Shown here piece by piece: positions 26,422-48,666 of a stretch of 64,000 nt of DNA (position 1 is the first letter of the stretch; each line of letters starts with the position of its first letter). The stretch comes from Candidatus Avigastranaerophilus sp. (lineage in GTDB: Bacteria; Muiribacteriota; Ozemobacteria; Ozemobacterales; Ozemobacteraceae). Location of the stretch: assembly GCA_045599645.1 (NCBI GenBank), contig JAZRWI010000080.1, positions 15,735 to 79,734 on the forward strand, in the 5' to 3' direction. The notes beneath the pieces are model-generated. The model searched no databases, had not been told where the DNA came from, and was given only the letters and a program-made list of their open reading frames with translations. The position numbers were made by a program, and so were the translations under genes.

Positions 26422-27735
26422 ATGGGTTTTGCTTTTTCTGACTATACAAACGTTATTGAAAATACAAATACAATCAGGGTTAACGGCCGCGTCACCCAGG
26501 TTGTAGGTCTCCTTATTGAAGCAACAGGCCCACAGAATCCAGTAGGTGACGTCTGCAATATCATAACTCCTAATGGTCCTCTTCCCTGTGAAATCGTAGG
26601 CTTCAGAAAAGATAGTGTTCTTTTAATGCCTTTGATTCATACAGAAGGAATCAGAAAAGGAGCAGAAGTAGTTCCTACAGGCCAGCCTTTAACCGCTCCG
26701 GCCGGTGATGAACTGCTTGGCAGATTATTGGACGGTTTAGGTAATCCAATTGACGAAAAGGGCGAATTTTCAGCCAGCATCCATAGAGTTCCACTTAACC
26801 GTGAACCACCTAACCCATTTACAAGAAAAAGAATTCTTGAACCAATGCCAACAGGTGTTAAGGTTCTTGACGGACTTCTTACCATAGGTAACGGCCAGAG
26901 ACTTGGTATTTTTGCAGGCTCTGGTGTTGGTAAAAGTACTTTACTAGGCATGATAAGCCGAACATCTAAGGCTGATGTAAACGTTCTAGCACTCATAGGT
27001 GAACGTGGTCGTGAAGTCAGAGAATTTTTGGAAAAAGACCTTGGGCCGGAAGGCATGAAGCGTTCCGTTATCGTTGTTGCAACATCTGACCAGCCTGCAC
27101 TCGTTAGAATTAAAGCTGCTTTTACAGCTACAGCTATCGCAGAATATTTCAGAGATCAGGGCAAAAACGTAATGCTGATGATGGATTCAGTAACTCGTTT
27201 TGCATTGGCACAGCGCGAAGTTGGTCTTGCAACCGGTGAACCACCTGCCACACGTGGTTACACCCCATCTGTTTTTGCTATGCTTCCAAAGCTGCTAGAA
27301 CGAGCAGGGACATCTCTCAAAGGTGCTATCACAGGCATTTATACAGTTCTTGTAGAAGGCGGTGACATGGACGAACCAGTTGCCGACGCCGTAAGAGGTA
27401 TTCTTGACGGTCACCTTATTCTCAGCCGTGACCTTGCTCATCAGAACATTTATCCTGCAATTGATATTCTGAGCAGTATTTCACGTCTTATGAACGAAAT
27501 AGCAGATAAGAATCATCTCGCCAATGCTGGTAAGCTGCGCAACATATATTCAACCTATATGAAAAATGTTGACGCCATTACACTTGGTGCTTATAAAGCT
27601 GGTTCTGACCCACGTATTGACGAAGCAATCAAAAAACAGCCTCTTATCGAAGCTTTTATAAAACAAGGAATTAACGAAGCTTGTCCATTCGAAGCCTCTG
27701 TTGCTGAAATAGCAAAAATAGCAGGCGGAAAGTGA
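26422..27735 (+). CDS. fliI: Flagellum-specific ATP synthase FliI
   Basis: Walker A GSGVGKST, Walker B MLMMDSVTRF. Overall F1/T3SS ATPase pattern. Confidence 0.9.
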   Translation: MGFAFSDYTNVIENTNTIRVNGRVTQVVGLLIEATGPQNPVGDVCNIITPNGPLPCEIVGFRKDSVLLMPLIHTEGIRKGAEVVPTGQPLTAPAGDELLGRLLDGLGNPIDEKGEFSASIHRVPLNREPPNPFTRKRILEPMPTGVKVLDGLLTIGNGQRLGIFAGSGVGKSTLLGMISRTSKADVNVLALIGERGREVREFLEKDLGPEGMKRSVIVVATSDQPALVRIKAAFTATAIAEYFRDQGKNVMLMMDSVTRFALAQREVGLATGEPPATRGYTPSVFAMLPKLLERAGTSLKGAITGIYTVLVEGGDMDEPVADAVRGILDGHLILSRDLAHQNIYPAIDILSSISRLMNEIADKNHLANAGKLRNIYSTYMKNVDAITLGAYKAGSDPRIDEAIKKQPLIEAFIKQGINEACPFEASVAEIAKIAGGK

Positions 27736-27744
27736 TAATCTGAA

Positions 27745-28197
27745 ATGGCATTTGAATTCAAATTGCGTCAGCTATTGCAGATAGCACTTCATGAAGAAAA
27801 TGAAGTGAAAAATCGTCTTGCCAAAAAAGACGCTCAAATAGCTGAGCTTGCAACTAAAATTCAAAGCTTTAAGGATCAGCAGACTCAGGCGCTTGCTGAG
27901 CAGCAGCAGGCAATGTTTTCCGGAGACCTGATGAAGGTTCAGATGTATCCGCCTTACATACAGTCATTGAAAAAATCAGAAGATTTTTACACCAATGAAA
28001 TGCAGCTTCAGCAGAAGCAACGTGCAAAGATAATGGCCGAATACGTTGAAAAGCAACGAAAACGAAAAACCTTCGAAAAGATGGAGGAAGTTGACAGAGC
28101 CAAATACATTAAGCAGATGCAGAAAAAGGAACAGGCCAGATTAGACGAATTTGGTGGAAGAAAAAGAAATACATTAATGGAGCCAGACAATGCTTGA
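27745..28197 (+). CDS. fliJ: Flagellar export protein FliJ (coiled-coil)
   Basis: 150-aa all-helical charged protein directly after fliI. Confidence 0.6.
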   Translation: MAFEFKLRQLLQIALHEENEVKNRLAKKDAQIAELATKIQSFKDQQTQALAEQQQAMFSGDLMKVQMYPPYIQSLKKSEDFYTNEMQLQQKQRAKIMAEYVEKQRKRKTFEKMEEVDRAKYIKQMQKKEQARLDEFGGRKRNTLMEPDNA

Positions 28198-28774
28198 AAA
28201 TATGAACAGACTTCTCGAAAAGATGGACGCTCTTAACAAGAGCCTCAGCATCTATGCCCCAAAGCATAATAGAAAAGCCAACAATGTTGATTTTCAAGCT
28301 CAGCTTGAAAAAGCCCAGAAAGGTCAGAATCTTTCATCCTGTTCACCGGCCACCACTGTAGAGAACGCTAATGATGTCCAATTCGCCAAGAATCTTAATG
28401 AAGAAGTTCAAGGTCTCATCGAAAAGTATTCAAAGGAATACAACGTTGACCCAGACCTCGTAAAGCAACTTATAACAGTAGCCTCAGGGAATAATCCCCA
28501 AGCTGTTGGCTCTAATGGTAACGTTGGCCTTATGCAGCTCAATCCATCTCTTTTAAGCACATATGGTATAACCAATCCATTTGATCCGGCCCAGAACATT
28601 TCCGCAGGAACTCAGCATCTTTCACAGTTGCTACAGAACAACAACGGAAACCTGCCGTTAGCTCTTGCCTCCTATAATACTGATCCATTAACAGTTAAGC
28701 GATTTGGTGGCGTTCCACCATACTTAGAAACCCAGAACTTTGTTAACCAGATTTTATCTGGCTTAGGCAAATAA
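28190..28774 (+). CDS. SLT (lytic transglycosylase) domain protein, flagellar operon-embedded; expected catalytic Glu appears replaced by Ala
   Basis: SLT-family motifs GNVGLMQLNP and ALASYNTDPLTVKRFGGVPPYLETQNFVNQIL. Position equivalent to the ES motif reads VASGNNP. 8-nt overlap with fliJ. Confidence 0.55.
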   Translation: MLENMNRLLEKMDALNKSLSIYAPKHNRKANNVDFQAQLEKAQKGQNLSSCSPATTVENANDVQFAKNLNEEVQGLIEKYSKEYNVDPDLVKQLITVASGNNPQAVGSNGNVGLMQLNPSLLSTYGITNPFDPAQNISAGTQHLSQLLQNNNGNLPLALASYNTDPLTVKRFGGVPPYLETQNFVNQILSGLGK

Positions 28775-28790
28775 ATAGAGGAAATCCAAA

Positions 28791-29726
28791 ATGCCTGATA
28801 ATAGACCCGACAACAAACCGGCTAACAATAAACAAGCAGAAGAAACTCAGCAATATAACGAAGAAGAACTGAATACTCCCGAAACACGGGAAGAACAGCA
28901 GGAAAGCTATAGAGAACCTTCCCCACTATTCAAGTTCTTCAGTACCATCTTCTATATTTTTTTACTTATCGCTGTAGGTATTGCATTAGTATTATTGCTC
29001 TTTTCTCTTGATTTTCTTAATATTTATACCTTCAGAAACAGCATTCCTGAATCTCTTAGAAAAGGCTGGCCTCTGGAAGCCTATTATGAATTCGTAAAGC
29101 TTCATCAGCTCCCTGAAGAAGAACGATATCAGCAGATGATGCATATAGAAAAAGACCGTTATAATCAGCTAATGAGCGACGGGAACAAGAGTCTTGAAGA
29201 CCGTGCAAAGGCTTTGGAAGAATCCTACAGAGCCTTAATCAGAACACAGAAAGAACAAAATAAATTAGACCAGGAAGCTATCCGTAAGAAACAGGAAGAG
29301 CTTGCACTGCAACAAAAAAAGCTTGAAGACAGTCTGGCTGACCTTGAAAAACGTAAGGCCGCTATTGATGATTTATCTAACCGTCTGGCTTCTGAAGCCA
29401 TGAATATAGAATCAAGCCTTATCAGATTTATGGAAAAAGAAAATAGACTTGATCAGGTTTGTGCAATTGCTGCTCAAATGGAACCCAAAGCTCTTGCCAG
29501 AGTATTTGACGAAGTTCCTGATGACCAGTTGATTTATGACATCATGGGCGGACTTCAGCCAAGTCATTCAGCAAAAACACTTGCCAATATGGACCCTGAA
29601 AAAGCAGGTAAGATTATGAAAATAAGCAACAATGCTCTGACATTACCTCCTCCAGGTCCATCAAGAAGCTATGTTCCTCAGTCTCTCACCAATCTGATAG
29701 ACGAAACTCAAGCCAATCGAAGATAA
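28791..29726 (+). CDS. MgtE-N/FliG-like domain flagellar protein (YlxF/MotE-like) with N-terminal TM helix and coiled coil
   Basis: C-terminal LDQVCAIAAQMEPKALARVFDEVPDDQLIYDIMGGLQPSHSAKTLANMDPEKAGKIMKI resembles the MgtE intracellular N domain. Its position after fliJ matches Bacillus ylxF. Confidence 0.5.
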   Translation: MPDNRPDNKPANNKQAEETQQYNEEELNTPETREEQQESYREPSPLFKFFSTIFYIFLLIAVGIALVLLLFSLDFLNIYTFRNSIPESLRKGWPLEAYYEFVKLHQLPEEERYQQMMHIEKDRYNQLMSDGNKSLEDRAKALEESYRALIRTQKEQNKLDQEAIRKKQEELALQQKKLEDSLADLEKRKAAIDDLSNRLASEAMNIESSLIRFMEKENRLDQVCAIAAQMEPKALARVFDEVPDDQLIYDIMGGLQPSHSAKTLANMDPEKAGKIMKISNNALTLPPPGPSRSYVPQSLTNLIDETQANRR

Positions 29727-29740
29727 TACAACGTAAATAA

Positions 29741-29772
29741 AAAGCCCTGGCTAATTGCCAGGGCTTTTTATT
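29741..29772. terminator. Bidirectional rho-independent terminator (AAAAAGCCCTGGCTAATTGCCAGGGCTTTTTAT) closing the flagellar operon and the convergent minus-strand lipoprotein operon
   Basis: Perfect GC-rich stem GCCCTGGC/GCCAGGGC, flanked by an A-run on one side and a T-run on the other. Confidence 0.8.
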
Positions 29773-29786
29773 TACGTTGTATTTGC

Positions 29787-30302
29787 TTACTGCAAGCTTG
29801 CTAACTGCTGATTGATTTCTTCAGATTCCAGCTTACTACTTCTTGTTGCCTGAAGAACACGCTGTCTCAGATTAGCGTAGAACAACTGCTTGTCTTCCGG
29901 GCTGTCTTCGATGATTACCTTAGGTGGTTCAATCATTGCAAAATCCTTGCTAGCACCGTAGAATCCATCGTCATCGCTTTCATGGAATAAAACAGTCATT
30001 GCTACATCAGAACGGTTTTCAAGATTTTCAACAATCTTTTCAGCCATTTCATCGCTCATAGGAATTTCTGCAACTGGTAAAATGCTTTCATCTGCTCTGT
30101 CCAAGATTAAATCAACTGCTTCTTCTTCACAGATAAGCTTTTCTTCTTCATCAGAATAAGTTCTGTGCTGAAACTGTTTAAGTCTTTCCTGAAGAGATTT
30201 AATCCTCAAATTCATGCTGTCTGTGCTGGAAATATCAGCATAAGCATTGCTACAGCACAGGCACAGGAATGCCATTCCCAGACTAAGAGCCAATTTACGC
30301 AT
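29787..30302 (-). CDS. Secreted acidic hypothetical protein
   Basis: Start placed at the ATG at 30302 (MRKLALSLGMAFLCLCCSNAYA signal peptide; GGAGG RBS at 30311-30315). Last gene of the beta-helix lipoprotein operon. Confidence 0.45.
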   Translation of the reverse strand: MRKLALSLGMAFLCLCCSNAYADISSTDSMNLRIKSLQERLKQFQHRTYSDEEEKLICEEEAVDLILDRADESILPVAEIPMSDEMAEKIVENLENRSDVAMTVLFHESDDDGFYGASKDFAMIEPPKVIIEDSPEDKQLFYANLRQRVLQATRSSKLESEEINQQLASLQ

Positions 30303-30376
30303 TATTTCTACCTCCGTCGACAAATAAAGTGTTCTATTACTTAATTCATCGGCATAAACAGGTGCTTTTATTAGTA

Positions 30377-32347
30377 TTATTCAGCACCATAAGCGCCAAT
30401 CTGGCCTTTATTTGAAGCTACATCAAGAAGTGGTGACCCGCTCTGCAGATGATAATCATATACATTCCCAATTTTTCCTTCGAACATTGGATCGACATTA
30501 TGTATCGGTGCACCGCTCTGAGTGCAATTGACTGTAGCTGTCTTAAAACCAAAAATATTATTATATGGGAAAGCAATACCGGAAGAATACATGTCTTCAA
30601 TACCATTACCGCTTCCGCTACTAGCCATATTCACAATAATGTTATTCTGGACTTTTGCGTCCATAGCTCCTTCAAGCTGAATTCCGTTAAGGGCATCAAT
30701 AGTCAGAAACTGTGCATCACAATTATCACCGCTTATTTCAAGACCCTTGGCAAGAGAATTGATAACACCGTTTCTTATTCTTGTATCAGCCTTGTCAAAA
30801 GCCTGAACTCCAGCCTTTTTGCAATTTCTAACATCAAAATAATTAAGTGTCAGACCTGTGTTGTTATTAAGAATAATGCCTACATCACAGCCTTCAGCCT
30901 TTACATCTGAAATATTACAATAATATGTATTTTCTACATTTATACCTGTTTCACAATCTTCTGTATAAATTCCAGAAATAGCTGTTCCACTAGCTGTAAT
31001 CAATGCAAAACCGGTTTTACAATATCTGGCTTTTACATTATCAATTTTCAGGTTACTGCTATAAAGCTTAAGCCCTGTATTTGCACCTGATATAACAACA
31101 TTACTGAACAAGCTTTCGTTTTCACCTATTCCAGCCATGAATCTTATGCCATCCCAGTCATTGTTCTGAGGTGTTGAGGACTGTGAAAGGAATTGAATTG
31201 GTTCTGCTTCGGTGCCACGGGCAATAATAACTCCTTCAACTACGAATTCACAGAGACTGTTTTTAAAAGTGTTATCCTTATTGCCATCAGTAAAGAATCT
31301 GATGCTAGTGCCAGGTTCAATAGTCAAAGTATATCTTGAAGGAATCGTAATATCACCACCCAAACTAATCGGGCTCCATTCCTTTTTCCAGACAATATCT
31401 TCATGGATTGTTCCTGTAGGAACAAAGCTTCTTACAGCAGGCAATTCAGAGAGATTACCTTCATAATCTACTGCATAAAGATTATAGGTATAATAGCGGC
31501 CTGGAGAAACCAGATCGTCAACAACAGACAACTGGCTGCTGAACATGTCGTTTTCATCTCTTAAAAGAGCGAGCTTTCCACCGTTTTCACTGCGATAAAT
31601 TCTAAATCCCCTGATTGGATCCGCACCGGCATATTGCCAAGAGAGCTGAGGACCATATATCGTCTGAGTAATATTGAAATCAATAGGAGTATCTGGCGCC
31701 CCTTCGATATCATACATGCTTACAGTCTTAAAGCTTGACTGTTCTGTAGTAAAGGTGCGGCCGTCAGATGTAGTTCCTGTTACAGAAAAATAATAGGTTG
31801 AATCAGGATAAAGATTATTAAGTGTAATTCTATGCTGAGTAGCTTTTGCATCTGGTGTTGTAGTGCTTGGCATATTGCTTAATTCGCGATATGTAACCGA
31901 AACACTCATTTCTTCATGACAATTAATATCAAGAACAACACTTGTTTTTTCCTTTACTGCAACATTAGCCTTTATCATCTTTTCCATGCTATCAACAACG
32001 ATTGTAACGTCATTAATAACCTGACCATACCCTAATTCTATTGTTGCAGAGCCAAGATAAAATCCGTCACGTTCGACTGTTAAATTATGATGTCCTTCAT
32101 CTAATGAAGTAAACATGAAACGGCCCATTTCATCTGTTTCAGCTTTGTAAAGAGAACGATTTGATGTAATTATTGCTCCGGAGACAGCTAGTTTATTAGA
32201 ATCAATAACAATGCCAGATACGCTGCCACGCTGAGTATCAAGAACATGATCCTCGTCTCTTACACAGCCAACAGTGAAAATAATAAATAAGGAAACAACG
32301 AATATGAGTATGTTTCTTATCCAAAGCTTAGTATTTTCGTTTCTCAT
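30377..32347 (-). CDS. Surface lipoprotein paralog 1: CarboxypepD_reg-like + FN3-like + right-handed parallel beta-helix repeats
   Basis: Lipobox FTVGC. N-terminal SGIVIDSNKLAVSGAIITSN (carboxypeptidase-regulatory-like beta-sandwich), then multiple PbH1-type repeats. Conserved C-terminal DP.F...Y.Y.L...SP motif shared with the two paralogs. Confidence 0.55.
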   Translation of the reverse strand: MRNENTKLWIRNILIFVVSLFIIFTVGCVRDEDHVLDTQRGSVSGIVIDSNKLAVSGAIITSNRSLYKAETDEMGRFMFTSLDEGHHNLTVERDGFYLGSATIELGYGQVINDVTIVVDSMEKMIKANVAVKEKTSVVLDINCHEEMSVSVTYRELSNMPSTTTPDAKATQHRITLNNLYPDSTYYFSVTGTTSDGRTFTTEQSSFKTVSMYDIEGAPDTPIDFNITQTIYGPQLSWQYAGADPIRGFRIYRSENGGKLALLRDENDMFSSQLSVVDDLVSPGRYYTYNLYAVDYEGNLSELPAVRSFVPTGTIHEDIVWKKEWSPISLGGDITIPSRYTLTIEPGTSIRFFTDGNKDNTFKNSLCEFVVEGVIIARGTEAEPIQFLSQSSTPQNNDWDGIRFMAGIGENESLFSNVVISGANTGLKLYSSNLKIDNVKARYCKTGFALITASGTAISGIYTEDCETGINVENTYYCNISDVKAEGCDVGIILNNNTGLTLNYFDVRNCKKAGVQAFDKADTRIRNGVINSLAKGLEISGDNCDAQFLTIDALNGIQLEGAMDAKVQNNIIVNMASSGSGNGIEDMYSSGIAFPYNNIFGFKTATVNCTQSGAPIHNVDPMFEGKIGNVYDYHLQSGSPLLDVASNKGQIGAYGAE

Positions 32348-34323
32348 TTCCTTGTTACCCCATATCTACCAAGTTCAAGTCCGAATTCATCGTTTATACG
32401 GCAGAGAGAAGATTCACTAAGATTGTAATCATATGGACTTCCACCGACAAAAGCTGGATCCAGAGCCACTGATAATGTTCCAACATCGCAGCCATAAACA
32501 GCATTCGCAAAGCCATAAATATCGTTATAGCAGTAGGTTGGATACTGGCTTTCATTCATATATGCAATACCAGTTGCACCGGCATTGGAGGTATTAGTGA
32601 AAATATTGTTAGTCAGGTAGAGAGAACCAGTAGCAATAATCAAGGCTCTATCAGCATCAACAGTAACATGGTCTATTATATTGCCACCATCATTCCTGAG
32701 GATATTAGTGTAATTGATACCTTCTGGACTGACTACGAGGGTATTTGTAATAATGCTATTTGCAAAGGTTCCTCTTATACCCGTATTGTATGCATAAATA
32801 TCTGTATTACGGATGAATGTCTGGTCATAAATGCTATCTGTGAAGTTTTCAAGACCAACAGAGGTATTTGTTATTCTTGAATTCTTCAAAGTCATATGGA
32901 AACATTTATTGATTGAAACTGCTACTGATGAAATATCATCAAAATAACAATTTTCAAGTTCAACAGCCTGAGTTACCCCTTCAAAGCGTAAGCCGCCAAC
33001 GGAATGCTTAACAGTAATGCCACTTACAGCAACATTTACAGATTTAACATTAATAGTATAGCCACTGCAGCCAAAAATTTCTGCATTCCTGATAGCTGAA
33101 ATACCTGTCTGAGAAGAAAGAATTGTAATTCCAGCCCAGTGTTCACGTTTACCTGAACCATCAAGAGGACTGAAAATAACCGGTTCAGCTTCTGTGCCAT
33201 TAACAGTGAGTGAGCCATGAACCAGTATTTCTACTCTATCTGTATCAAAGCCAGATTTGAAGGAATCATTTTCGCTGATCTGGAATTCTGTTCCAGCTTC
33301 AACAGTCATATTGACACCCATGGGAACAATAAGGTCTGCTGTTATCTTTACAGGAGAATCCAGTTTACTTATGTTAATATCGTTCTTAACTACGCCAGGA
33401 ACGAAAACTAAGTCAGAGACCATCTTATCAGATTCAGCACCTACATTGTTTACAGCAGTAACTGCATAACGGCAGAAAACACCTGTTTCTGCTTCCACAT
33501 CGCTGTAACTGCAACCCTTAGTAATAACTGTTCCGTTGCAACGAACCCAGGCACCGCCCTTTTTCTGGCGATAAACATTATAGCCTGCAACAGAAAGCTT
33601 TGTTTCAGGAGCAGTCCAGGTCAAAGGCACTACACCAAGCTCAGTCATATCTGCTATCTTTATAGAAGATGGCTTATATGGCGCTTCGCCACTGGCAGTT
33701 CTAAAAGTATAATCGAAGGAAGAATAACTATTAGAAAATTCATCAAGATATTGAATCTTGAAATGATATACAGTTTCTGGGGTTAGACCGGTTAAGAGGT
33801 AATAATGTATTTTATTTGGGCGTTCTTCTGCAACATAGCTACCATAGCTCATATCTTTGCCATAATGGATGTTACAGCAGATATCCTTGTAGGTCTGCCA
33901 ATTAATTTCAACAGTAGTTGATGAAACCTGGCCAATAACAACTTTAGAAATTCTGTTACTGGCGCTCAAGCGGTCTAATCGGATAAAATCAACTTTTGTT
34001 TCCTGATCAGATTTTACTTCAGACTGATACTGTTCAAGCGCAAAATCGCTGTGCTGAATAATAATATTATTAAGGCCAGCAGGGAGTTCTGGCAGTCTGA
34101 AAGAACCGTCCAGACCGGAATAAACAATCTGGTCATCTGCAAACAGAGAAAAACATTTTGCATTAATTACTGCGTCGCCTTTTTCATCGATTAATCTGCT
34201 GCTAAAGCTGCCAGTATTGGACTGACGGCTTCCACAGCCTGTAAGCAGAGCAGTTAATAGCAAAACTGCCAGCAAAAAAGCTGGCACTATTTTCCTTCTG
34301 TCAATTTGGAACATCTTCTGCAC
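32344..34323 (-). CDS. Surface lipoprotein paralog 2 (same architecture)
   Basis: Lipobox LLTGC. 4-nt overlap with paralog 1. Beta-helix repeats and C-terminal DPAFVGGSPYDYNLSESS. Confidence 0.55.
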   Translation of the reverse strand: MQKMFQIDRRKIVPAFLLAVLLLTALLTGCGSRQSNTGSFSSRLIDEKGDAVINAKCFSLFADDQIVYSGLDGSFRLPELPAGLNNIIIQHSDFALEQYQSEVKSDQETKVDFIRLDRLSASNRISKVVIGQVSSTTVEINWQTYKDICCNIHYGKDMSYGSYVAEERPNKIHYYLLTGLTPETVYHFKIQYLDEFSNSYSSFDYTFRTASGEAPYKPSSIKIADMTELGVVPLTWTAPETKLSVAGYNVYRQKKGGAWVRCNGTVITKGCSYSDVEAETGVFCRYAVTAVNNVGAESDKMVSDLVFVPGVVKNDINISKLDSPVKITADLIVPMGVNMTVEAGTEFQISENDSFKSGFDTDRVEILVHGSLTVNGTEAEPVIFSPLDGSGKREHWAGITILSSQTGISAIRNAEIFGCSGYTINVKSVNVAVSGITVKHSVGGLRFEGVTQAVELENCYFDDISSVAVSINKCFHMTLKNSRITNTSVGLENFTDSIYDQTFIRNTDIYAYNTGIRGTFANSIITNTLVVSPEGINYTNILRNDGGNIIDHVTVDADRALIIATGSLYLTNNIFTNTSNAGATGIAYMNESQYPTYCYNDIYGFANAVYGCDVGTLSVALDPAFVGGSPYDYNLSESSLCRINDEFGLELGRYGVTRK

Positions 34324-36310
34324 CTATGTCTTCACCAGAATCATAACCAGCCTTTTTCAAAGTGCTGCCTGATTTTGGAGTGTAGCTGAAATTAGAATCT
34401 GTTAAAGCATCTATAAATGGGTCACCGCCAGTTAAAGCCGGCCCTGAAGATGAACTAAATGCCAGGTCACCACTTACAGCTAATGCATTTCCAGAGGAAT
34501 TGCCATACTTCATAGCTGGAACAGTCTGATTCCAAACACCATTATTCTGAATAGAGATATCAGTAGATGAAGTATTATTGCTTACATAAAGCAGACCCAT
34601 GCTATTGCGGTTTTTATCAGCCAACATGAGATTGCTTCTGATAAATGTCTTTGCAGTATCTTTTACCTGAATACAAAGAGGTGCCTGAATAGTATTTCTG
34701 CGGATTTCATCAAAACCGTTGCAAACGATACCTATTCCGCCAGTTCCCCACCCTATTGTATTGCGGTAAACCATAGAAGCAGAATTGTTAGCATTAACTT
34801 CAATAGCGGTAATTACATTAGCCTTGATTTTATTACCAGTAATCTGGTTCAGTTCATTATTCATAGCTCTAATGGCATATGAACAACCACTGAAGGTATT
34901 ATCTGAAATTTTAATAACAGCATTGCTATCACTTATATCAATACCAGTAATACAAGAAACAAAGCTATTGTTATCTATTTCAATATCATTTTCTGATTTA
35001 TTTGCATATATAGCAGCATCAGAGCAGTTGCTAAACCAGCATCCACTGATTTTTGGCAAACCATTTTCACCAACAACACCCTTTTCTGCAAATTGTATCT
35101 TTAAGCCTTCAAGAGATGATGCAGACAGGTCTGCAGATTCTTTGAAGGTAATACCTTCCCAGTCACCATTCTCTGGAACTGCTTCTGCCGATGTAATACA
35201 GACTGGCTGACTTTCAGTTCCCTGAACAAGCAAAGTACCAAGAACAGTTATACCAACCTTGTCTATTCCAACTCCGTCTGCATCCCACTTATCGATACCT
35301 GCAGCACGGATTTCTGTGCCTTTTGCAATAATAAGGCTTGCACCCTGAGCAATGATTAAATCCCCAGTGAGTTCATAAGGTGATCCCTGAGGATTCCAAA
35401 CAACGTTAGTATTTATTGTTCCAGGCATAACCATTGATACAACGGCAGAAGGTGAACTTTCATCGCCACTGCCTGCAATTCTGGTTACTCTATAAAAATA
35501 TTTTTCACCAACCTTAATACCCATATCAACATATGAAGCCTGCTGAACAATACCTGTGTTTATTTTTTCAAATACACCATCAATGCTGGAAGAACGATAA
35601 ACATTAAAGCCTGCAAAATCAGCACTCGCATCTGCATTCCAAGCAAGAGAAAAAGCTGAATTTCCATAATTTTTTGAAATGGTCAGGCCTGTTGGAGGTT
35701 CACTTCTAGCTGCTACAGAGGTTGTAAAGGTTTTAACTTCTGAAGTAAGAGCTCTGTTAAACTTATCTGTTCCTAGACACTGGAATACATATGTAGTAGA
35801 TGGAACAAGACCAGTAAGCTCAAAAATGTGAGTATATTTCTTAGCTGAACTGCTTGGCAATACCTTATCCATCTGGGAATTACTGCCATAAGCAATCTTG
35901 GTATCAGCTTCAAATTTTGTTTTAAAGCTGATGGTAGCCTTTGTTGAAGTAACTTCAGAGACAACTATGTCATATATTTCGCCTGCTGACGGAAGCTGGA
36001 ATGTGATATTTTCGACAATCATACCACTCTGAACTTCGTAGCTCTTTGATTGACTCTGATAATTTTCCTTGCTGGCTACAAATTCATATATCTGTGGTTC
36101 TAAGTCTTCAATATTCCACTTACCATAGTAGTCAGTAACAGCACTACGGCCGCCAACTGATACAACAGCTCCACTTAAAGCCTTAGCGTTTGTATCTAAT
36201 ACGATACCGCTGGCCCCACCCGAAGCAGCATCGTTGGAACCCATGCAGCCAATCAGGCTCATGACGGAAAATACAAGGATAAAAATTGTCATCAATCTAA
36301 AGTTTTTCAT
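34301..36310 (-). CDS. Surface lipoprotein paralog 3 (same architecture)
   Basis: Lipobox SLIGC, SGIVLDTNAKALSGAVVSVGG, beta-helix repeats. 23-nt overlap with paralog 2. Confidence 0.55.
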   Translation of the reverse strand: MKNFRLMTIFILVFSVMSLIGCMGSNDAASGGASGIVLDTNAKALSGAVVSVGGRSAVTDYYGKWNIEDLEPQIYEFVASKENYQSQSKSYEVQSGMIVENITFQLPSAGEIYDIVVSEVTSTKATISFKTKFEADTKIAYGSNSQMDKVLPSSSAKKYTHIFELTGLVPSTTYVFQCLGTDKFNRALTSEVKTFTTSVAARSEPPTGLTISKNYGNSAFSLAWNADASADFAGFNVYRSSSIDGVFEKINTGIVQQASYVDMGIKVGEKYFYRVTRIAGSGDESSPSAVVSMVMPGTINTNVVWNPQGSPYELTGDLIIAQGASLIIAKGTEIRAAGIDKWDADGVGIDKVGITVLGTLLVQGTESQPVCITSAEAVPENGDWEGITFKESADLSASSLEGLKIQFAEKGVVGENGLPKISGCWFSNCSDAAIYANKSENDIEIDNNSFVSCITGIDISDSNAVIKISDNTFSGCSYAIRAMNNELNQITGNKIKANVITAIEVNANNSASMVYRNTIGWGTGGIGIVCNGFDEIRRNTIQAPLCIQVKDTAKTFIRSNLMLADKNRNSMGLLYVSNNTSSTDISIQNNGVWNQTVPAMKYGNSSGNALAVSGDLAFSSSSGPALTGGDPFIDALTDSNFSYTPKSGSTLKKAGYDSGEDIGAEDVPN

Positions 36311-36466
36311 AGCGTCTTCTTTGAATTTCGGCTATTTGTCTTCAAAAGCTTAGATTTTTATATGACATCAAGAACAGATATTCCCTAAAATCGAAAAGGC
36401 ACTCCATGCCGCTTCCTGAGCTCAGTATGGTGGTGCCTTTTTGCTTGAATGCTTAGCAGTTTGTTT

Positions 36467-36715
36467 TTATGCTACTTCTTCAAGATTAATTGTAGAATCT
36501 TCGCACTGGCTGGCAAGATCAATCTTACCGTTGCTCATGTCAAAGAGTCTCTGCTGAATTCTGGCCTGAACGATTTCAAGACCGTTTGGCAGGTCGAGCA
36601 GGTTGATGTCTTTTCCTAAGACTTCGCCGTAGTTTTCTTTAATATGCTGAATCATACGAATTCTGAATTCAGCATCTGTCTTGGCCTGATACAATGGAGT
36701 ATTAGGTAGAATCAC
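36467..36715 (-). CDS. Small hypothetical protein (82 aa)
   Basis: ORF only. A hairpin plus U-run (36391-36440) follows on the minus strand. Confidence 0.3.
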   Translation of the reverse strand: MILPNTPLYQAKTDAEFRIRMIQHIKENYGEVLGKDINLLDLPNGLEIVQARIQQRLFDMSNGKIDLASQCEDSTINLEEVA

Positions 36716-36892
36716 GATTTACCCCCTGGAATGTGATTTAGATACAGTTCACACTACTTATCGGCAAGACTGAATATTCCCTTAATGCTTTTTTTATATC
36801 TCAGAAAAATAGCAACTTTATAACTTGCCCAAAAGAAGATATCCCAAAACTAGAAATCTATAAAAATCCCGATGTACAGTAGATTCCTAAAA

Positions 36893-37067
36893 CCTCCCTT
36901 TTTAAGGGAGGGTAGGGAGGGTTTTGATTTTAGAAAGAACTTGTTTTGAATGCATAAAATCGAGTTTTCAGACAGCCTCTTTAAGGGAGGGTAGGGAGGG
37001 TTTTGATTTTAGAAAGAACTTGTTTTGAATGCATAAAATAGAGTATTCAGACAGCCTCCAAAGAGGC
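36893..37067. repeat. Two tandem ~80-bp direct repeats, each with a perfect hairpin (CCTCCCTT-TTT-AAGGGAGG in copy 1) followed by a G-quadruplex motif GGGAGGGTAGGGAGGG and ...GGTTTTGATTTTAGAAAGAACTT...; a GCCTC-CAAA-GAGGC hairpin at the 3' edge
   Basis: Read directly. Copy 1 is 36893-36975 and copy 2 is 36976-37054 (~95% identical). G4 motifs at 36906-36921 and 36985-37000. Confidence 0.85.
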
Positions 37068-37733: not shown

Positions 37734-38483
37734 TCATGAATTAATATCAATGCCTGTTCTGAGGCCGACGAAGCTGTCCATCTGGCTGAGAGCCATGGCA
37801 ATGCCTGGCATAAAGCAATCTCTGTTGATTGTATCGTGTCTTATAGTGAGAGTCTGGCCCAAGTCACCGAAAATTACTTCCTGATGAGCAACCAAACCAG
37901 GTAATCTTACTGAGTGCATAGGAATTACATCGGGATTATTTTCTTCATCAAGCTTTCCAATGGCTTCAAGCATGCCTTTTCTAGTCTTGATTGCAGTTCC
38001 AGAAGGCTTATCAACCTTCTGGTCATGATGTAGTTCAATAATTTCAGCTTTCTTCATAAACTTAGCTGCTATCTTGGCAAAATTCATCATTAAAATAGCG
38101 CCAATGGCAAAGTTTGGAACAATCATAATAGCTGTTTTATTCTTCCGGGCTAATTCATCTAGCATTTTCATATTTTCAGAAGAAATGCCGGTAGTTCCAA
38201 TAAGAATAGGAGTCTTGGAATTAAGGCAGGTTATGGCATTTCCAACAACTGCAGAAGGAGCTGTAAAATCGATTACAACGTCTACCTTTGCGCTTGCAAG
38301 TCCTTCCTGCATTGTTCCGCAGACAATAATATCGCTATCGATGCCTGCAACCTTGTTCAAAGGAGCATCGCAGTGCTTTGGATCAACACCTGCTACCAAT
38401 TTATAATCAGGAAGATTGCTAATATAATTGCAGACAGTCTTCCCCATCTTTCCGCCACAACCAGAAACTAATACGTTCTTCAT
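37734..38483 (-). CDS. dapB: 4-hydroxy-tetrahydrodipicolinate reductase
   Basis: N-terminal Rossmann VLVSGCGGKMGK and a DapB-like C-terminal domain (HHDQKVDKPSGTA; E-L/I-H-H..K-D-APSGTA). Stop overlaps the dut start. Confidence 0.85.
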   Translation of the reverse strand: MKNVLVSGCGGKMGKTVCNYISNLPDYKLVAGVDPKHCDAPLNKVAGIDSDIIVCGTMQEGLASAKVDVVIDFTAPSAVVGNAITCLNSKTPILIGTTGISSENMKMLDELARKNKTAIMIVPNFAIGAILMMNFAKIAAKFMKKAEIIELHHDQKVDKPSGTAIKTRKGMLEAIGKLDEENNPDVIPMHSVRLPGLVAHQEVIFGDLGQTLTIRHDTINRDCFMPGIAMALSQMDSFVGLRTGIDINS

Positions 38484-38911
38484 TATTTAACTCCTGTTGA
38501 ACCGAAACCGCCAGCTCCTCTGGCTGTATCGTCTAATACTTCAACCTGTTCAAAAGCCACCTGAGTTACATGAGCAAACACCATCTGTGCAATACGCATA
38601 CCTGGTTCAATAACAAAATCATTCTTACCGTGATTAATTAAAATCACACAGATTTCGCCGCGATAATCACTATCAATAGTGCCTGGAGCATTAAGAACTG
38701 TCACCCCATGCTTTGCAGCAAGACCGGAACGAGGTCTGATCTGTGCTTCCAAACCCATAGGCATGGCTATCCTGATTCCGGTCGGAACCTTTTCAAACTC
38801 ACCTGCTTTAATAGTAACAGCCTGTGATGCGCACAAATCATAGCCTGCAGAACCTGCAGTTGCCATTTCTGGCATCTTAGAGTCAGTAATCTGAATAAAA
38901 ACCTTTTCCAA
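38483..38911 (-). CDS. dut: dUTP diphosphatase
   Basis: dUTPase motifs [24 protein letters not shown]. Apparent TTG start with an AAGGAG RBS located inside the first repeat unit. Confidence 0.85.
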
Positions 38912-38920
38912 TGTTTTCTC

Positions 38921-39244
38921 CTTTATAGCGGGTAGGATAAATCCCCCCTGCCCCCTTTAACAAAGGGGGTTTTAGAAAGTTTCTACTTTATAGCGGGTAG
39001 GATAAATCCCCCCTGCCCCCCTTTAACAAAGGGGGTTTTAGAAAGTTTCTCCTTTATAGCGGGTAGGATAAATCCCCCCTGCCCCCCTTTAACAAAGGGG
39101 GTTTTAGAAAGTTTCTACTTTATAGCGGGTAGGATAAATCCCCCCTCCCCCCCTTTAACAAAGGGGGTTTTAGAAAGTTCCTACTTTATAGCGGGTAGGA
39201 TAAATCCCCCCTGCCCCCCTTTAACAAAGGGGGTTTTAGAAAGT
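38921..39244. repeat. Five tandem 65-66-bp direct repeats (CTTTATAGCGGGTAGGATAAATCCCCCCTGCCCCC(C)TTTAACAAAGGGGGTTTTAGAAAGTTTCTMC), each with a perfect hairpin CCCCCTTT-AAC-AAAGGGGG followed by TTTT
   Basis: Read directly. Units begin at 38921, 38986, 39052, 39118 and 39184, with no spacers, so this is not CRISPR. It shares a GG(G)TTTTAGAAAG core and C-run/hairpin/G-run architecture with the 36.9-kb repeat. Confidence 0.9.
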
Positions 39245-39290
39245 GATTAATTTCTATTAGACAAAGATTATATCATTTTATAATAAAATA

Positions 39291-39330
39291 AGGCACCCTT
39301 CTTTTAGAGAAAGGTGCCTTAGCGTTTTTT
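39291..39330. terminator. Hairpin (GGCACCCTT...AAAGGTGCC) with flanking T/A runs downstream of the aminotransferase gene
   Basis: Imperfect ~9-bp stem with TTTTTT on the plus side and a U-rich tract on the minus side. Confidence 0.45.
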
Positions 39331-39343
39331 GCTGCCCTAGATT

Positions 39344-40561
39344 TTATGCTGCCATATCAAGAGTTTCAAACAGCTGATACTCTCTGATAGCTTCACCAAG
39401 CACTTCCATGGCTCTCGCTATCTTTGCAGAATCAATGGTATAGCTTAAGCGGATTTCGTTTGTTCCAAGGCCTGGCGTTGCATAAAAGCCCTGGGCTGGT
39501 GCTACTAGAACAGTGTCACCATCATAATCAAAATCAGTAAGCATCCATTTTGCAAATTCTTCGGCATTCTTTATCGGAAGCTTTACAATGCAATAGAAAG
39601 CTCCGCCTGGTGTTTCGCATACAACTCCTGGAATCTTAGAAAGGCCTTCCATCAAAACATTTCTGCGGTGTTCGTATTCTTCAAGTATAGGCTGGAAATA
39701 AGATGGATCCATCATTACACCAGCTACTGCAGCCTTCTGTTCCAATGTTGGGGAACAAAGTCGGCACTGAGCAAACTTGATACAAGCTTCCATAACCTTC
39801 TTGTTCCAGCTTCCAATCATACCAATACGGGCGCCACAGGCAGAATAACGCTTTGAAATACTGTCAATTACGATAGCGTTGCTGCGTGCTTCGCGAACCT
39901 GCATTATTGAAGTATACTGATGACCGTCATAAATAAATTCCCTATAAACTTCATCAGAGAGGATATACAGATTATGAACCTTGGCAATCAATGCAAGACG
40001 GCGAAGTTCATCCTTTGTATAAACTGTTCCGGTAGGATTATTAGGATTGCAGATGAGAATACCTTTTGTTCGTGGTGTGATAGCTTCTTCAATTACTTCA
40101 TTTGAGGGAAGGTGAAAACCATTTTCCGGATATGTTCTGACAGCTTTGAGGTTAATTCCTGCTTCGGTGGCAATACCATTATAGTTTGTGTAGAATGGTT
40201 CAAAAACCAGTAATTCATCGCCAATATCGCAGGTTGCTAAGAATGCAAAATAAACAGCCTCTGTGCCTGATGTAGTTACAACAATATCCTCCGGCTTAAG
40301 ATTTATATTCATTCTGTTGTAATACATTGAAAAGGCTTCCAATAAGGAATCTTCACCCTGAGACGGGCTATAAGCCAAAATCTTCTTATCGAAGTTCTTT
40401 ATTTCTTCCATAATCGGAGCTGGTGTTGGAATATCTGGCTGTCCGATGTTCAGTGGTATTACATTAATCCCCTGTTCCTCTGCTTTATTTGCAAGAGGAA
40501 TTAGCTTACGGATAGGAGAGGCCTGCATTTGCCTTGCTCTGTTAGATACGTTCTGCATCAT
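39344..40561 (-). CDS. Pyridoxal-phosphate-dependent aminotransferase, class I (aspartate/aromatic aminotransferase-like)
   Basis: 405 aa, fold-type I pattern, with the PLP-binding Lys in SISKRYSACGARIG (SxSK motif). Confidence 0.8.
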   Translation of the reverse strand: MMQNVSNRARQMQASPIRKLIPLANKAEEQGINVIPLNIGQPDIPTPAPIMEEIKNFDKKILAYSPSQGEDSLLEAFSMYYNRMNINLKPEDIVVTTSGTEAVYFAFLATCDIGDELLVFEPFYTNYNGIATEAGINLKAVRTYPENGFHLPSNEVIEEAITPRTKGILICNPNNPTGTVYTKDELRRLALIAKVHNLYILSDEVYREFIYDGHQYTSIMQVREARSNAIVIDSISKRYSACGARIGMIGSWNKKVMEACIKFAQCRLCSPTLEQKAAVAGVMMDPSYFQPILEEYEHRRNVLMEGLSKIPGVVCETPGGAFYCIVKLPIKNAEEFAKWMLTDFDYDGDTVLVAPAQGFYATPGLGTNEIRLSYTIDSAKIARAMEVLGEAIREYQLFETLDMAA

Positions 40562-40691
40562 TAACTGTCCTTTTTTAATCCGTTTCCTTGTTTTTTATTT
40601 ATACTATTTGTGCTTTTCACACCTATCATCGTACTGTTTCGGCATTTCTTTGCATTTTGCTTAGTTAGTAGTAAAATATGCTTAAAAGCTT

Positions 40692-46428: not shown

Positions 46429-48666
46429 TTGGAGGCAATGACCTTGAGAAAGCTTTTACGACACAGCATACTATGTCTTTTATATATATTATCAGTTGCA
46501 ACTGCTAATGCAGCAGTTATTACGACCTCTTCCGGAAAGCCAATAGAAGCTTCTTCTATTTCTTATAAAGACAGCCAGCTATATTTCAACACCGGCTCAG
46601 AAACCAAGTCCTTAGACAGACGGGATATAAGAGATATCAGTTTTTCTGCCAAGACCCAGAAGAAAGAAATCTCTTCAACAGAAATAGGTGATCTGGCTGA
46701 ATATGTTGATAAAGCCCAAAAGCTCATTGCTAAGTATCCTGATGCTCAGTCTGTATTAGTATATACAGAACGCAATCACCGCCATCGCCACGATGGTTCA
46801 AACATTTCCAGACATAGAAGCATAACATACGTTGCCAAAGAAGAAGCACTCTGGGCTGCTCATGTATCAGTTTCATTCGACCCGAACCGTGAAAAGGTTA
46901 AAATTCTTCATGCAAGATGCTTAACCCCGGAGGGTGAAGTTCATACCGTAAAGCCTGACCAGATAAAGATTTCAAAGGGCACCTCCGGTAGTGTTGATTT
47001 TTCAGAAGAACAGGACATGAGCTTCAGTATTCCCGGTGTTACTGTTGGAAGCCTTGTAGACTATAGCTATGAAATCGAAGAATACAATCCTTTTGATTCC
47101 AATCTTTTCAGTGGTGTAAGCTTCTTTCAGCTTACTCGCCCAATCGGTGAAGCAGTGCTTCGTGTTAGCGTCCCGATAGACCAGAAGCTTTACCATATTG
47201 CAAGAAATATCCCCGAAGAACAGTCAAACCCAACAATCATTGAAGCCGTTGACTCTGTTCTCTACACATGGAAAATGGAAGACATGCCGCCAGTTATTTC
47301 AGAACCTCGCATGCCACCTATCCGTGACGTACTTCCTTCAATTTTCTACAGCATCCAGAAAGATCACAAGTATATGCATGCCAAGCTCAAGCCCATGTAT
47401 GATAAGCGCTTTGAGCTTACCGATGATGTAAAAGCCAAGGTTGATGAACTGATAAAAGATTGCAAAAATACTAAAGAAAAAATAGCAAAACTTTATTATT
47501 TCTGCCAGCAGGAAATACGTTATATTTCCATAAAATCTAATCTTGCCAGCAATCAGGTTGGTCATCCGGCAGATGAAACCCTAAAAAATAAATACGGCGA
47601 TTGTACAGACAAAGGTATGCTGCTTTCCGTTATGCTTAAACACATTGGTGTAGAAGCATATCCAGTAACAATACTTACAAATAATGCAGGTAAAGCAGTC
47701 AGAGAATTAGGTATCTTTGACAGCAACCATTGTATAACAGAAGTTCATCTTGATGGCCGCGTATTCTATCTTGATGCTACAGCAACAGATTTCAGGTATC
47801 CATATTTCCGCTCAGATGACCACGATACTGATGCTTTGAACATTATGCTGGGAACCCAGAATAAAGTTCCACTGCCACCACCGGAAGACAATTCTACAAC
47901 TTCAGTCCGTAAGATTAGCTTAGAACCGGACGGCACAACTCATATTGACGTAGAAACAACATGCAATGGCCCGACAGAGGCATCTCTCCGCGGTTATGCA
48001 CGTAATCTGAAGCCGGAAGAATATGAAAAACTGGTCAGACGTTCTATTTCTGCTCAGACAGCTGATTACGTTCTTGAAATAGCCACCCATACCAATCCTC
48101 TTGATTTTGACACTCAATACAAGAGTCATTCAGCATATACTCTTAACAGATTTGCTACAAAATCAGGAAAATACATGATTTTCTCTGTTCCTTACTTTGA
48201 AATCACATTTCCAGAAGTAAGCCTTGAAAAGAGAAATTATGCTATTCAACATGCAACCTCCCGTCAGCAGACAGATCAGCTTTCAATCAAGCTACCGGAA
48301 GGCTATGCTGTAAAATATCTTCCACCGGCCCTCAGAGTTCAAAGTCCATATGTAGAATTTGAAATTATTTATGACCAGCAGGGTGACGAAATAGAAATTA
48401 CACGTAAAATGGCTTTTCCACGAAGATATATACCTGTTGAAGACTACGAAAGCTATAAAGCTGACGCAGAAAAGATTGCACATTCTTCCAAGCAAAAGAT
48501 TTTCTTAGAAAAAATAGAAAAGGAAGAAAGCGAGCCAATCGCTAATGCCTCTGAAACAGTCAATATCAACAATCCTGTTCCTGACACACAAGAAAACTCT
48601 ACTGAAAAAACTCTGGAAGGAACAGCTTCTACTACCGTAGAAGTTCAGGAAGGAGCACAAAAATGA
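46429..48666 (+). CDS. Secreted DUF3857 + transglutaminase-like cysteine protease-fold protein (catalytic Cys/His/Asp present)
   Basis: Signal peptide. Transglutaminase-like core YGDCTDKGMLLSVMLKHIGVEAYPV (Cys), SNHCITEVHLDGRVFYLDATA (His/Asp). The start codon is uncertain: TTG at 46429 or ATG at 46438. Confidence 0.55.
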   Translation: MEAMTLRKLLRHSILCLLYILSVATANAAVITTSSGKPIEASSISYKDSQLYFNTGSETKSLDRRDIRDISFSAKTQKKEISSTEIGDLAEYVDKAQKLIAKYPDAQSVLVYTERNHRHRHDGSNISRHRSITYVAKEEALWAAHVSVSFDPNREKVKILHARCLTPEGEVHTVKPDQIKISKGTSGSVDFSEEQDMSFSIPGVTVGSLVDYSYEIEEYNPFDSNLFSGVSFFQLTRPIGEAVLRVSVPIDQKLYHIARNIPEEQSNPTIIEAVDSVLYTWKMEDMPPVISEPRMPPIRDVLPSIFYSIQKDHKYMHAKLKPMYDKRFELTDDVKAKVDELIKDCKNTKEKIAKLYYFCQQEIRYISIKSNLASNQVGHPADETLKNKYGDCTDKGMLLSVMLKHIGVEAYPVTILTNNAGKAVRELGIFDSNHCITEVHLDGRVFYLDATATDFRYPYFRSDDHDTDALNIMLGTQNKVPLPPPEDNSTTSVRKISLEPDGTTHIDVETTCNGPTEASLRGYARNLKPEEYEKLVRRSISAQTADYVLEIATHTNPLDFDTQYKSHSAYTLNRFATKSGKYMIFSVPYFEITFPEVSLEKRNYAIQHATSRQQTDQLSIKLPEGYAVKYLPPALRVQSPYVEFEIIYDQQGDEIEITRKMAFPRRYIPVEDYESYKADAEKIAHSSKQKIFLEKIEKEESEPIANASETVNINNPVPDTQENSTEKTLEGTASTTVEVQEGAQK

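Follow-up and report, generated by a model that had tools for sequence, protein, structure and literature searches.

A phylum-wide operon of three divergent beta-helix lipoproteins with motility-type promoter-like elements in Riflebacteria

We find that a four-gene operon, A-B-C-D, in a Riflebacteria genome encodes three divergent, putative beta-helix lipoproteins and a small secreted protein. With motility-type promoter-like elements and an unchanged operon, A-B-C-D looks like fixed cell-envelope equipment rather than a set of variable adhesins. Riflebacteria are uncultured, and many of their genes are of unknown role (PMC10849945). The window (the whole 64,000-nucleotide stretch analyzed, from Candidatus Avigastranaerophilus sp.) contains all four ORFs, which confirms a preliminary description of three consecutive minus-strand paralogs plus a small secreted protein. 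The features concerned are as follows.

29787-30302, minus strand: gene D, 171 aa, with a signal peptide
30377-32347, minus strand: gene C, 656 aa putative lipoprotein, lipobox TVGC
32344-34314, minus strand: gene B, 656 aa putative lipoprotein, lipobox LTGC
34301-36310, minus strand: gene A, 669 aa putative lipoprotein, lipobox LIGC
30346-30374, minus strand: promoter-like element of sigma-28 type between C and D, CTAA-N18-CCGA; -10 sequence GCCGATGA
36326-36353, minus strand: bipartite promoter-like element of gene A, CTAAG-N-GCCGAAA, found by pattern search
26422-29726, plus strand: flagellar operon fliI-fliJ-SLT-FlbB-like, convergent with A-D
29732-29776, no strand: bidirectional intrinsic terminator with a 20-bp stem, common to the A-D and flagellar operons
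36389-36446: hairpin of the upstream small ORF
36467-36715: upstream small ORF
36897-37054: two copies of a 79-nt repeat

Genes B and C meet in an ATGA overlap, in agreement with the 4 nt previously described. Gene B most likely starts at ATG 34314 (MFQIDRR..., matching its orthologs), with an AGGTG Shine-Dalgarno-like sequence upstream, though its ORF can be extended to GTG 34323; with the start at 34314, the A-B overlap is 14 nt, not the 23 nt given before. Translational coupling of A, B and C is conserved. The small ORF, hairpin and repeats noted upstream are all present and lie outside the operon, the repeat-bearing segment being an insertion that is missing from the closest relatives. No Rfam family scored above threshold, and the sub-threshold matches at 29726-29808 correspond to the terminator hairpin.

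A, B and C share one layout: a lipobox, a CarboxypepD_reg-like domain, two FN3-like domains (where one had been described) and a right-handed beta-helix. In gene A these domains span residues 31-106 (CarboxypepD_reg-like), 112-197 and 205-294 (FN3-like) and about 297-605 (beta-helix), followed by a conserved C-terminal tail. Pfam models for CarboxypepD_reg, fn3/Pur_ac_phosph_N and Beta_helix/NosD score above the gathering cut-off in A and C; B gives only weak fn3 matches. The Beta_helix cut-off (PF13229) is 25.9 bits, which A (39.7 bits) and C (37.8 bits) exceed and B on its own does not reach. Profile-profile comparison nevertheless aligns the three over their full length (100% probability, E 1e-53 to 1e-71, 593-632 columns), and the predicted 3D fold is a three-stranded right-handed beta-helix, so the fold expected earlier is borne out. 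The paralogs are only 22-28% identical, with values of 23-26% in direct pairwise alignment; they are divergent, and neither near-identity nor a different fold, either of which would have told against the preliminary description, is found. The lipobox G-C, preceded by a hydrophobic stretch, is invariant in 89/89 A, B and C orthologs, which identifies all three as putative lipoproteins; in a diderm bacterium, a lipobox leaves the membrane and its face unspecified. The P, Y, S and G columns of the C-terminal motif are likewise conserved. In a Foldseek search, the PDB structures matched were all tandem-FN3 and aligned with the stalk, which is uninformative on function.

We compared 31 species-level loci from Riflebacteria. 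The A-B-C order is identical in 31/31, as far as contigs extend, with 1:1:1 orthology, one locus per genome and constant copy number. Ortholog identity ranges over 35-88% (A), 36-90% (B) and 35-84% (C). Judging from dN/dS of 0.06-0.10 in every domain of all four genes, measured against an 88% ortholog, A, B, C and D are under strong purifying selection, and conservation is even along the length, with no hypervariable domain. Orthologs were used because dS between paralogs is saturated at 25% identity, which makes paralog dN/dS meaningless. By these comparisons, the triplication is older than the radiation of Riflebacteria. Among named matches, the full architecture of about 660 aa occurs in Riflebacteria only, always as the A-B-C trio, and a profile of the helix domain found almost nothing outside Riflebacteria in a word-indexed protein database. 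The helix module as such belongs to a huge, generic and unannotated family: an exhaustive search of representatives gave 12,365 relatives with E<=0.001. Among the 150 top-scoring ones, many are giant multi-repeat proteins, and the relatives scanned pair the helix with CARDB, FN3 or CarboxypepD_reg.

Gene A is preceded by CTAA-N18-[CT]CGA in 29/30 Riflebacteria loci, with a variable spacer sequence. This element lies 12-17 nt from the ATG, mostly 13 (for two loci the distance came out as 9 nt, counted from a TTG start that is doubtful), and a Shine-Dalgarno-like sequence is seen in just one of the 30 loci. The preliminary description overlooked all of this, as it did the gene D element described below and the phylum-wide conservation. 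Sigma-28 promoters have the elements TCTAAAG/GCCGATAA, arranged as TAAA-N15-GCCGATAA (PMC12784957). The gene A element resembles this consensus, both consensus and element positions being those of PMC12784957; its -10 is CCGA[AG]A rather than CCGATA, with one nucleotide more in the spacer than is canonical. A neighboring gene, orf82, has the canonical TAAA-N15-G[CT]CGATA in most of 22 loci and [CT]CGATA in all 22, so Riflebacteria very probably have a sigma-28-type factor that recognizes the usual sequence. The gene A element itself could instead serve a different sigma factor or some other DNA-binding protein. A second CTAA-N-CCGAAA match, at 40637-40664 before the aminotransferase gene, is no more than chance would give, has no conserved counterpart at other loci and was set aside.

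Gene D begins at ATG 30302, preceded by GGAGG, a Shine-Dalgarno sequence found in 21/21 loci. A -10 of the form G[CT]CGATA lies about 35-40 nt before the ATG in 19/21, with a variable -35; the exceptions are GCCGATG, in the window and in L020, and GCCGATT, reported for two loci. The protein has a cleavable signal peptide (AYA|D) and three conserved segments (N.RI.ALR.RL..YQ, E.LE.R.DVA.TVLFHD and Y..LR..V..ATR), and is predicted to be helical without a stable fold alone (AF2, low confidence: pLDDT 60, pTM 0.20). Its description as small and secreted stands; the acidity (pI 4.4 in the window) is restricted to the gut clade, orthologs ranging from pI 4.4 to 9.6. Six lineages lack gene D (L007, L019, L021, L026, L029, L035), and in seven the operon has no adjacent flagellar genes (L007, L019, L021, L022, L026, L029, L035). 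All of these keep A-C together with the gene A promoter element.

We tentatively propose, at somewhat less than an even chance, that A-B-C-D is a motility-co-regulated envelope module in which three non-redundant beta-helix lipoproteins jointly bind or process a glycan. Each paralog consists of a putative lipid anchor, three Ig-like domains that form a stalk, and a rigid right-handed beta-helix. A, B and C are probably made from one translationally coupled transcript, followed by the Sec-exported, helical D. Transcription would start from the sigma-28-like promoter, so near the gene A ATG that the mRNA would be leaderless or nearly so. Gene D would have an additional, canonical sigma-28-type promoter, and with such promoters at both A and D, the module would be switched on together with late motility genes, next to whose cluster the operon lies. 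This adjacency may be only inherited gene order, since synteny extends across the whole conserved neighborhood (DapB, dUTPase, aminotransferase, NadE and the flagellar genes); in most lineages NadE separates the two. The three helices would act together, probably as a hetero-oligomer, a reading that comes only from their coupling and co-retention, with D as a partner or assembly factor. Each paralog has its own invariant polar residues on the same helix coils (A D534/E535/R537/R538/R558; B D551/H552/D556; C T549/D551), which suggests diverged yet functional surfaces. Their target would be a polysaccharide made for the envelope or matrix of the cell itself, which they would cut, epimerise or bind as a scaffold; they would not serve in nutrient harvest. 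Counting against the proposal are the unusual -10 and spacer of gene A, the lineages that keep A-C without D or without adjacent flagellar genes, and the absence from the operon of genes for making, exporting or importing glycan. The organism is a flagellated diderm, in which A-B-C-D would be a fixed envelope module specific to Riflebacteria.

Whatever its role, the operon is an invariant, phylum-specific feature of Riflebacteria, encoding what look like abundant envelope lipoproteins, and A-B-C shows cleanly how an ancient triplication can become fixed as a whole. The generic annotation "beta-helix repeat protein" can be replaced by a defined four-gene module with a testable link to motility, and the alignments give comparative evidence for sigma-28-type promoters and a putatively leaderless first gene in Riflebacteria. 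Should the proposed connection with flagella, or with remodelling of envelope glycan, prove true, A-B-C would represent a new protein class in motility-associated envelope machinery.

The earlier suggestion of polysaccharide-active or adhesin-like proteins names the right broad class, as befits lipoproteins with a pectate-lyase/CASH-type beta-helix. It is conceivable, if rather unlikely, that A, B and C are three separate envelope-anchored enzymes (lyase, hydrolase or epimerase) of differing specificities acting on external or matrix polysaccharide. C has a weak Pect-lyase_RHGA_epim match, and in A the patch of acidic and arginine residues named above (D534/E535/R537/R538/R558) is invariant. 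Against separate enzymes, identity is just 13-16%, and comparing the profile with PDB sequences brought up no enzyme at a significant level (best E 0.0086, across 43 residues), the best sequence match to a solved lyase having E 0.077. The orthologs conserve neither GH28 nor AlgG motifs. DPHD or D.HD occurs in the helix region of 0/89, and the GH28 motifs NTD, G(Q)DD, GHG and RIK are absent or sporadic (NTD in 12/30 B orthologs only, the rest in at most 2). The central helix coils contain no charged residue common to A, B and C. Carbohydrate-active enzyme repertoires usually differ between lineages, unlike this set, which is fixed at three in every lineage. Finally, neither transporter nor glycan-utilisation genes are adjacent.

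It is also possible, though unlikely, that the lipoproteins and D form a non-catalytic ring, disk or cage in the periplasm or at the outer membrane, a structural flagellar accessory with a role like that of FlgP/FlgT/PflA-type embellishments or of the spirochaete collar. The sigma-28-like elements upstream of A and D, the absence of catalytic residues common to the paralogs and the phylum-wide retention of three coupled subunits of equal length, as in a machine, are in its favor. So is the location: the A-D operon adjoins a fliF-fliG-fliH-fliI-fliJ cluster and converges with its fliI-fliJ-SLT-FlbB-like operon. In the seven lineages listed above, on the other side, the operon is not next to flagellar genes. 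Late sigma-28 genes usually encode filament, stator or chemotaxis proteins, not basal-body parts; we know of no beta-helix flagellar component; and A-D have no similarity to flagellar families in Pfam or NCBIfam. A bolder version, in which a heterotrimeric or ring-forming A/B/C assembly with D is a new flagellar envelope component or a motility-coupled glycan-remodelling machine, strikes us as a long shot. If true, A-D would give flagellar function its first link to a set of beta-helix proteins, one specific to Riflebacteria and made from a leaderless sigma-28 transcript.

NosD-like periplasmic accessory proteins, serving a metalloenzyme or docking onto an ABC transporter, are very improbable: for TIGR04247, whose cut-off is 300 bits, A scores 18.6 and C 20.0, the conserved neighborhood has no nosZ/F/Y/L-like genes, and PF05048, which does match, is a generic beta-helix model that also matches thousands of unrelated surface proteins. 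The least credible reading, antigenic or functional diversification of variable surface adhesins like chlamydial Pmp arrays, is contradicted by the single, constant 1:1:1 locus in all lineages, its fixed order, the low dN/dS, the even conservation and the age of the triplication. A defense system and a prophage tailspike were also considered and rejected, since PADLOC and PHROGs gave zero matches.

The preferred reading, a motility-co-regulated, glycan-directed envelope module, can be set beside several known systems. Chlamydial Pmp-type families vary in copy number, evolve fast or under positive selection and have hypervariable regions, none of which is seen in A-B-C. The generic "right-handed parallel beta-helix repeat-containing" proteins of uncultured bacteria and archaea (PF13229/PF28492) lend the orthologs their NCBI name; A, B and C differ in being compact, at about 660 aa, and always a trio. 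From NosD (PF05048, TIGR04247; PDB 7o0y) they are set apart by scores more than 10-fold under the NCBIfam cut-off and by the lack of nos genes nearby. At the sequence level they do not group with the beta-helix lyase families (Pel9A of PL9, PL6 alginate lyases, Vibrio cholerae RbmB, phage K1/K5 enzymes), and no conserved Ca-site-plus-base constellation is common to A, B and C. PL1/PL3/PL6/PL9 enzymes have a Ca-binding acidic cluster and a Lys/Arg base in consecutive coils; the acidic-plus-Arg set of A is kept by A alone and is not shared by B or C. The AlgG/AlgE-type mannuronan C5-epimerases, with a periplasmic CASH beta-helix (PDB 4nk8, 2pyg), show 16% identity. Their DPHD motif is missing from all 89 orthologs and an alginate operon is absent here; the A/B/C helix, moreover, follows a putative lipid anchor and three Ig-like domains, and exists as a fixed set of three paralogs. 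Bacillus subtilis, of the Terrabacteria lineage, has in lytABC a sigma-D/sigma-28 operon for a lipoprotein and proteins that act on envelope glycan. A-D share neither sequence nor fold with lytABC, and their sigma-28 dependence is inferred from promoter-like elements; the likeness would lie in the arrangement, a lipoprotein and envelope-glycan operon placed under the motility sigma factor.

The four ORFs A, B, C and D lie consecutively on the minus strand in the ORF listing of the window, and we conclude that they form a real, well-defined and phylum-specific operon. Its parts are as follows.

34301–36310, minus: A, beta-helix lipoprotein, 669 aa
32344–34323, minus: B, longest ORF; most likely ATG start at 34314 (MFQIDRR...), giving 656 aa
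30377–32347, minus: C, 656 aa
30346–30353, minus: GCCGATGA, promoter-like element in the C–D spacer
29787–30323, minus: D, TTG ORF; ATG start at 30302, after GGAGG, giving 171 aa
29732–29776: bidirectional terminator with a 20-bp stem, between D and a convergent flagellar operon

Ortholog agreement and an upstream AGGTG/AGGAG Shine-Dalgarno sequence make 34314 the most likely start of B. From there, B overlaps A by 14 nt, not by 23 nt as first described; the 4-nt overlap of B and C (ATGA) stands. The convergent operon encodes flgB/C-like genes, fliF, fliG, fliH, fliI, fliJ, an SLT lytic transglycosylase and an FlbB/MotE-like protein.

The small ORF, hairpin and repeat region upstream of A, which the preliminary description counted among the operon's surroundings, are present yet lie outside it. 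The small gene orf82 (36467–36715, minus) has its own promoter (~36758–36786) and a terminator-like hairpin (36389–36446), and in most lineages it sits ~2.5 kb away on the opposite strand. Its product (79–82 aa) begins MILPNTPLYQAKTDAEFRIRMIQHIK, ends in LAA/VAA resembling a ClpX degron, and is 68–95% identical across the phylum, versus 35–88% for A. It has no match in Pfam, NCBIfam or the PDB, and may regulate the motility regulon as a small protein whose level is set by proteolysis. The repeat, likewise outside the operon, comprises two tandem copies of a 79-nt unit (36897–37054; 96% identical); in each copy, a T run comes directly after a CCCTCCC...GGGAGGG hairpin. It lies inside a ~270-nt insertion that is not found in the closest relatives, L005 and L008, and no further copy of the unit occurs within the window.

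Full-length homologs of A (42–100% identity) come solely from Candidatus Riflebacteria; outside this phylum, matches are at the domain level only. Our survey, with a single genome for each GTDB species, yielded 31 loci, every one of them from Riflebacteria or from an evidently mislabelled MAG. The order A-B-C holds in every locus as far as the contig extends, and by BLAST every protein falls unambiguously into one of three ortholog groups (A–A identity 35–88%, and comparable values within B and within C). Three 1:1:1 groups in constant order indicate that the triplication predates the sampled radiation of the phylum, the A-B-C set being frozen since. D is present in 21 lineages, with a D-like ORF additionally in L022; it was not found after C in six. 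In one of the loci that lack D (L007, 16069–18888), C is followed by genes for a secreted protein of 644 aa and for a protein of the prepilin type; in L019/L021 (15985–20907), an Smr-like ORF comes after C, together with genes for two secreted proteins, each >700 aa.

The neighbourhood is also kept: on one side the operon is flanked by orf82, DapB, dUTPase and an aminotransferase, and on the other by (NadE)-FlbB-like-SLT-FliJ-FliI. Within the gut clade to which the window belongs, the aminotransferase-dUTPase-DapB block (37734–40561) is inverted relative to most Riflebacteria (compared with L003, 7407–9861), and NadE (NAD synthase), which elsewhere sits between D and the flagellar operon, is missing. 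Complete Riflebacteria-type A-B-C-D operons with syntenic neighbours also occur in MAGs labelled Candidatus Avigastranaerophilus (L005, JAZUDR010000012.1), Erysipelotrichia (L015, SABV01000055.1) and Candidatus Methylomirabilis (L018, DYKG01000009.1), so these records are probably mis-binned or mislabelled. Elsewhere in the window, two tandem DUF3857 paralogs (46429–52515, plus), the first of which additionally has a transglutaminase core, precede an O-antigen-ligase-like TPR membrane protein; and a LuxE-like acyl-protein synthetase lies beside a LuxC-like acyl-CoA reductase (9801–12793, plus), in a non-luminous anaerobe lineage.

Pfam matches above threshold on A and C cover CarboxypepD_reg, fn3/Pur_ac_phosph_N and Beta_helix/NosD; B gives weak fn3 matches only. 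Profile-profile alignment of the ortholog sets nevertheless shows A, B and C to be homologous over their whole length (100% probability, E 1e-53 to 1e-71). AF2 models A (mean pLDDT 87) as four successive parts, followed by a C-terminal tail at lower confidence.

N-terminus: signal helix
31–106: beta-sandwich
112–197 and 205–294: two FN3-like domains
297–605: beta-helix of ~13 coils

The Pfam domains, the modelled helix of A and a between-group identity of 22–28% bear out the divergent, tandem beta-helix paralogs noticed at the outset. The helix module itself is common (12,365 representatives at E<=0.001). Many of the best 150 are giant and contain it several times, and the relatives scanned pair it with CARDB, FN3 or CarboxypepD_reg domains; among named members, the ~660-aa architecture is limited to Riflebacteria. 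In Syntrophales (L036, DATJBN010000249.1, 629–9345), a remote relative of the helix domain is joined to a GNA1162-like lipoprotein domain and clusters with proteins of three kinds, FlgT_N-like, TPR-CsgG and FN3; here the same module is used by a different envelope lipoprotein system.

D carries a predicted signal peptide, with cleavage expected at an AXA site, in line with the small acidic secreted protein first proposed; the acidity is restricted to the gut clade and is not a general trait. Three segments are conserved (N.RI.ALR.RL..YQ, E.LE.R.DVA.TVLFHD and Y..LR..V..ATR). Homologs come from Riflebacteria only, and D has no match in Pfam, NCBIfam, PHROG or PADLOC. Its AF2 model consists of separate helices at low confidence (pLDDT 60, pTM 0.20), a result compatible with D acquiring its fold on a partner.

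In 29 of 30 lineages, the region upstream of A has one layout: an invariant CTAA, 18 nt of variable spacer, and then CCGA, which is invariant but for TCGA in one lineage. In L006, GACGA replaces CCGA. Two conserved blocks around a variable spacer of fixed length are the signature of a sigma-factor site. The ATG of A follows CCGA by 12–17 nt (13 in most lineages; 36311–36325 in the window). A Shine-Dalgarno-like sequence precedes A in just one of 30 lineages, versus 21 of 27 for C, and GGAGG precedes D in all 21. The short distance and the lack of a Shine-Dalgarno sequence in 29 lineages would imply leaderless or near-leaderless initiation at A, and we infer that in most lineages transcription starts 0–3 nt ahead of its ATG. 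For comparison, the Pseudomonas fliC promoter has TCTAAAG (-36 to -30) and GCCGATAA (-15 to -8) as its sigma-28 elements (PMC12784957). The A element, TCTAAG...nCCGAAA, resembles these with a spacer longer by 1 nt, the consensus coming from outside Riflebacteria. G[CT]CGATA occurs in the C–D spacer in 19 of 21 lineages, ~35–40 nt before the ATG of D, and [CT]CGATA lies upstream of orf82 in 22 of 22, mostly with TAAA ~15 nt further up.

A canonical sigma-28-type site, TAAA-N16-GCCGATAA, is found at 58425–58452 (plus), 21 nt before the gene for a TPR-repeat protein of 1244 aa that has a signal peptide (58473–62207), itself followed by a predicted outer-membrane beta-barrel of the Phenol_MetA_deg family (62204–63136); the two are another candidate motility-regulon envelope pair. 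Judging from the [CT]CGATA sites before D, orf82 and the TPR gene, a sigma-28-type factor of canonical specificity very probably operates in the phylum. Measured against the Pseudomonas consensus, D appears to belong to the regulon of this factor, and A less certainly so.

We tentatively interpret A-B-C-D as a motility-co-regulated envelope module, whose beta-helices, probably in a hetero-oligomer that includes D, would bind or process a polysaccharide of the envelope or matrix. The proteins would be fixed, non-redundant subunits acting jointly in the envelope. Three equal-length paralogs with predicted lipid anchors, translational coupling that is conserved, strict co-retention, purifying selection that is strong, helix surfaces that are diverged yet individually conserved, and a small exported partner all point this way, and together fit joint subunits better than variable adhesins or enzymes for nutrient degradation. 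Expression of the operon with late motility genes is suggested by its sigma-28-like elements and by the adjoining flagellar cluster; in a sigma-28/leaderless model, D would have its own transcription start ~7 nt after GCCGATNA. Several points weaken this reading: the -10 element and spacer of A are non-canonical, some lineages are without D or without nearby flagellar genes, and synteny is conserved generally, which makes the position beside the flagellar cluster count for less.

That A, B and C are instead three independent polysaccharide enzymes seems rather unlikely. The three ortholog groups each keep a different selection of polar residues without variation, located in corresponding coils:

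A: D534, E535, R537, R538, N539, R558, N560, D565
B: N548, D551, H552, T554, D556
C: T549, D551, N568, N573

Ortholog alignments reveal no charged residue common to A, B and C in the central coils; columns common to all three groups are mostly structural (G, P, W, Y, L and a few Asn/Thr/Ser typical of helix ladders). A motif search of the helix orthologs did not find the AlgG/AlgE DPHD motif, and the GH28 motifs were lacking or at most scattered, so the GH28-like residues raised in the preliminary description are not borne out. Searched against PDB sequences, the helix profile gave nothing significant (best E 0.0086, across 43 residues). The modelled fold places the trio in the glycan-binding/processing (CASH) class, with enzyme activity predicted neither way. 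A purely structural flagellar accessory we consider unlikely. A NosD-like accessory is highly improbable, as the proteins score ~20 bits against a family cut-off of 300 and no nos genes lie nearby. Least probable of all are variable adhesins: dN/dS against the 88%-identical L005 orthologs is 0.065 for A, 0.063 for B, 0.100 for C and 0.058 for D, at most 0.115 in every domain, and column conservation is uniform along A, B and C, which contradicts the antigenic or adaptive diversification originally envisaged.

Beta-helix envelope proteins with CASH domains have been described, and A-B-C is of this kind; what sets it apart is a frozen trio of hetero-paralogs, predicted to be lipid-anchored and apparently under sigma-28-type control.
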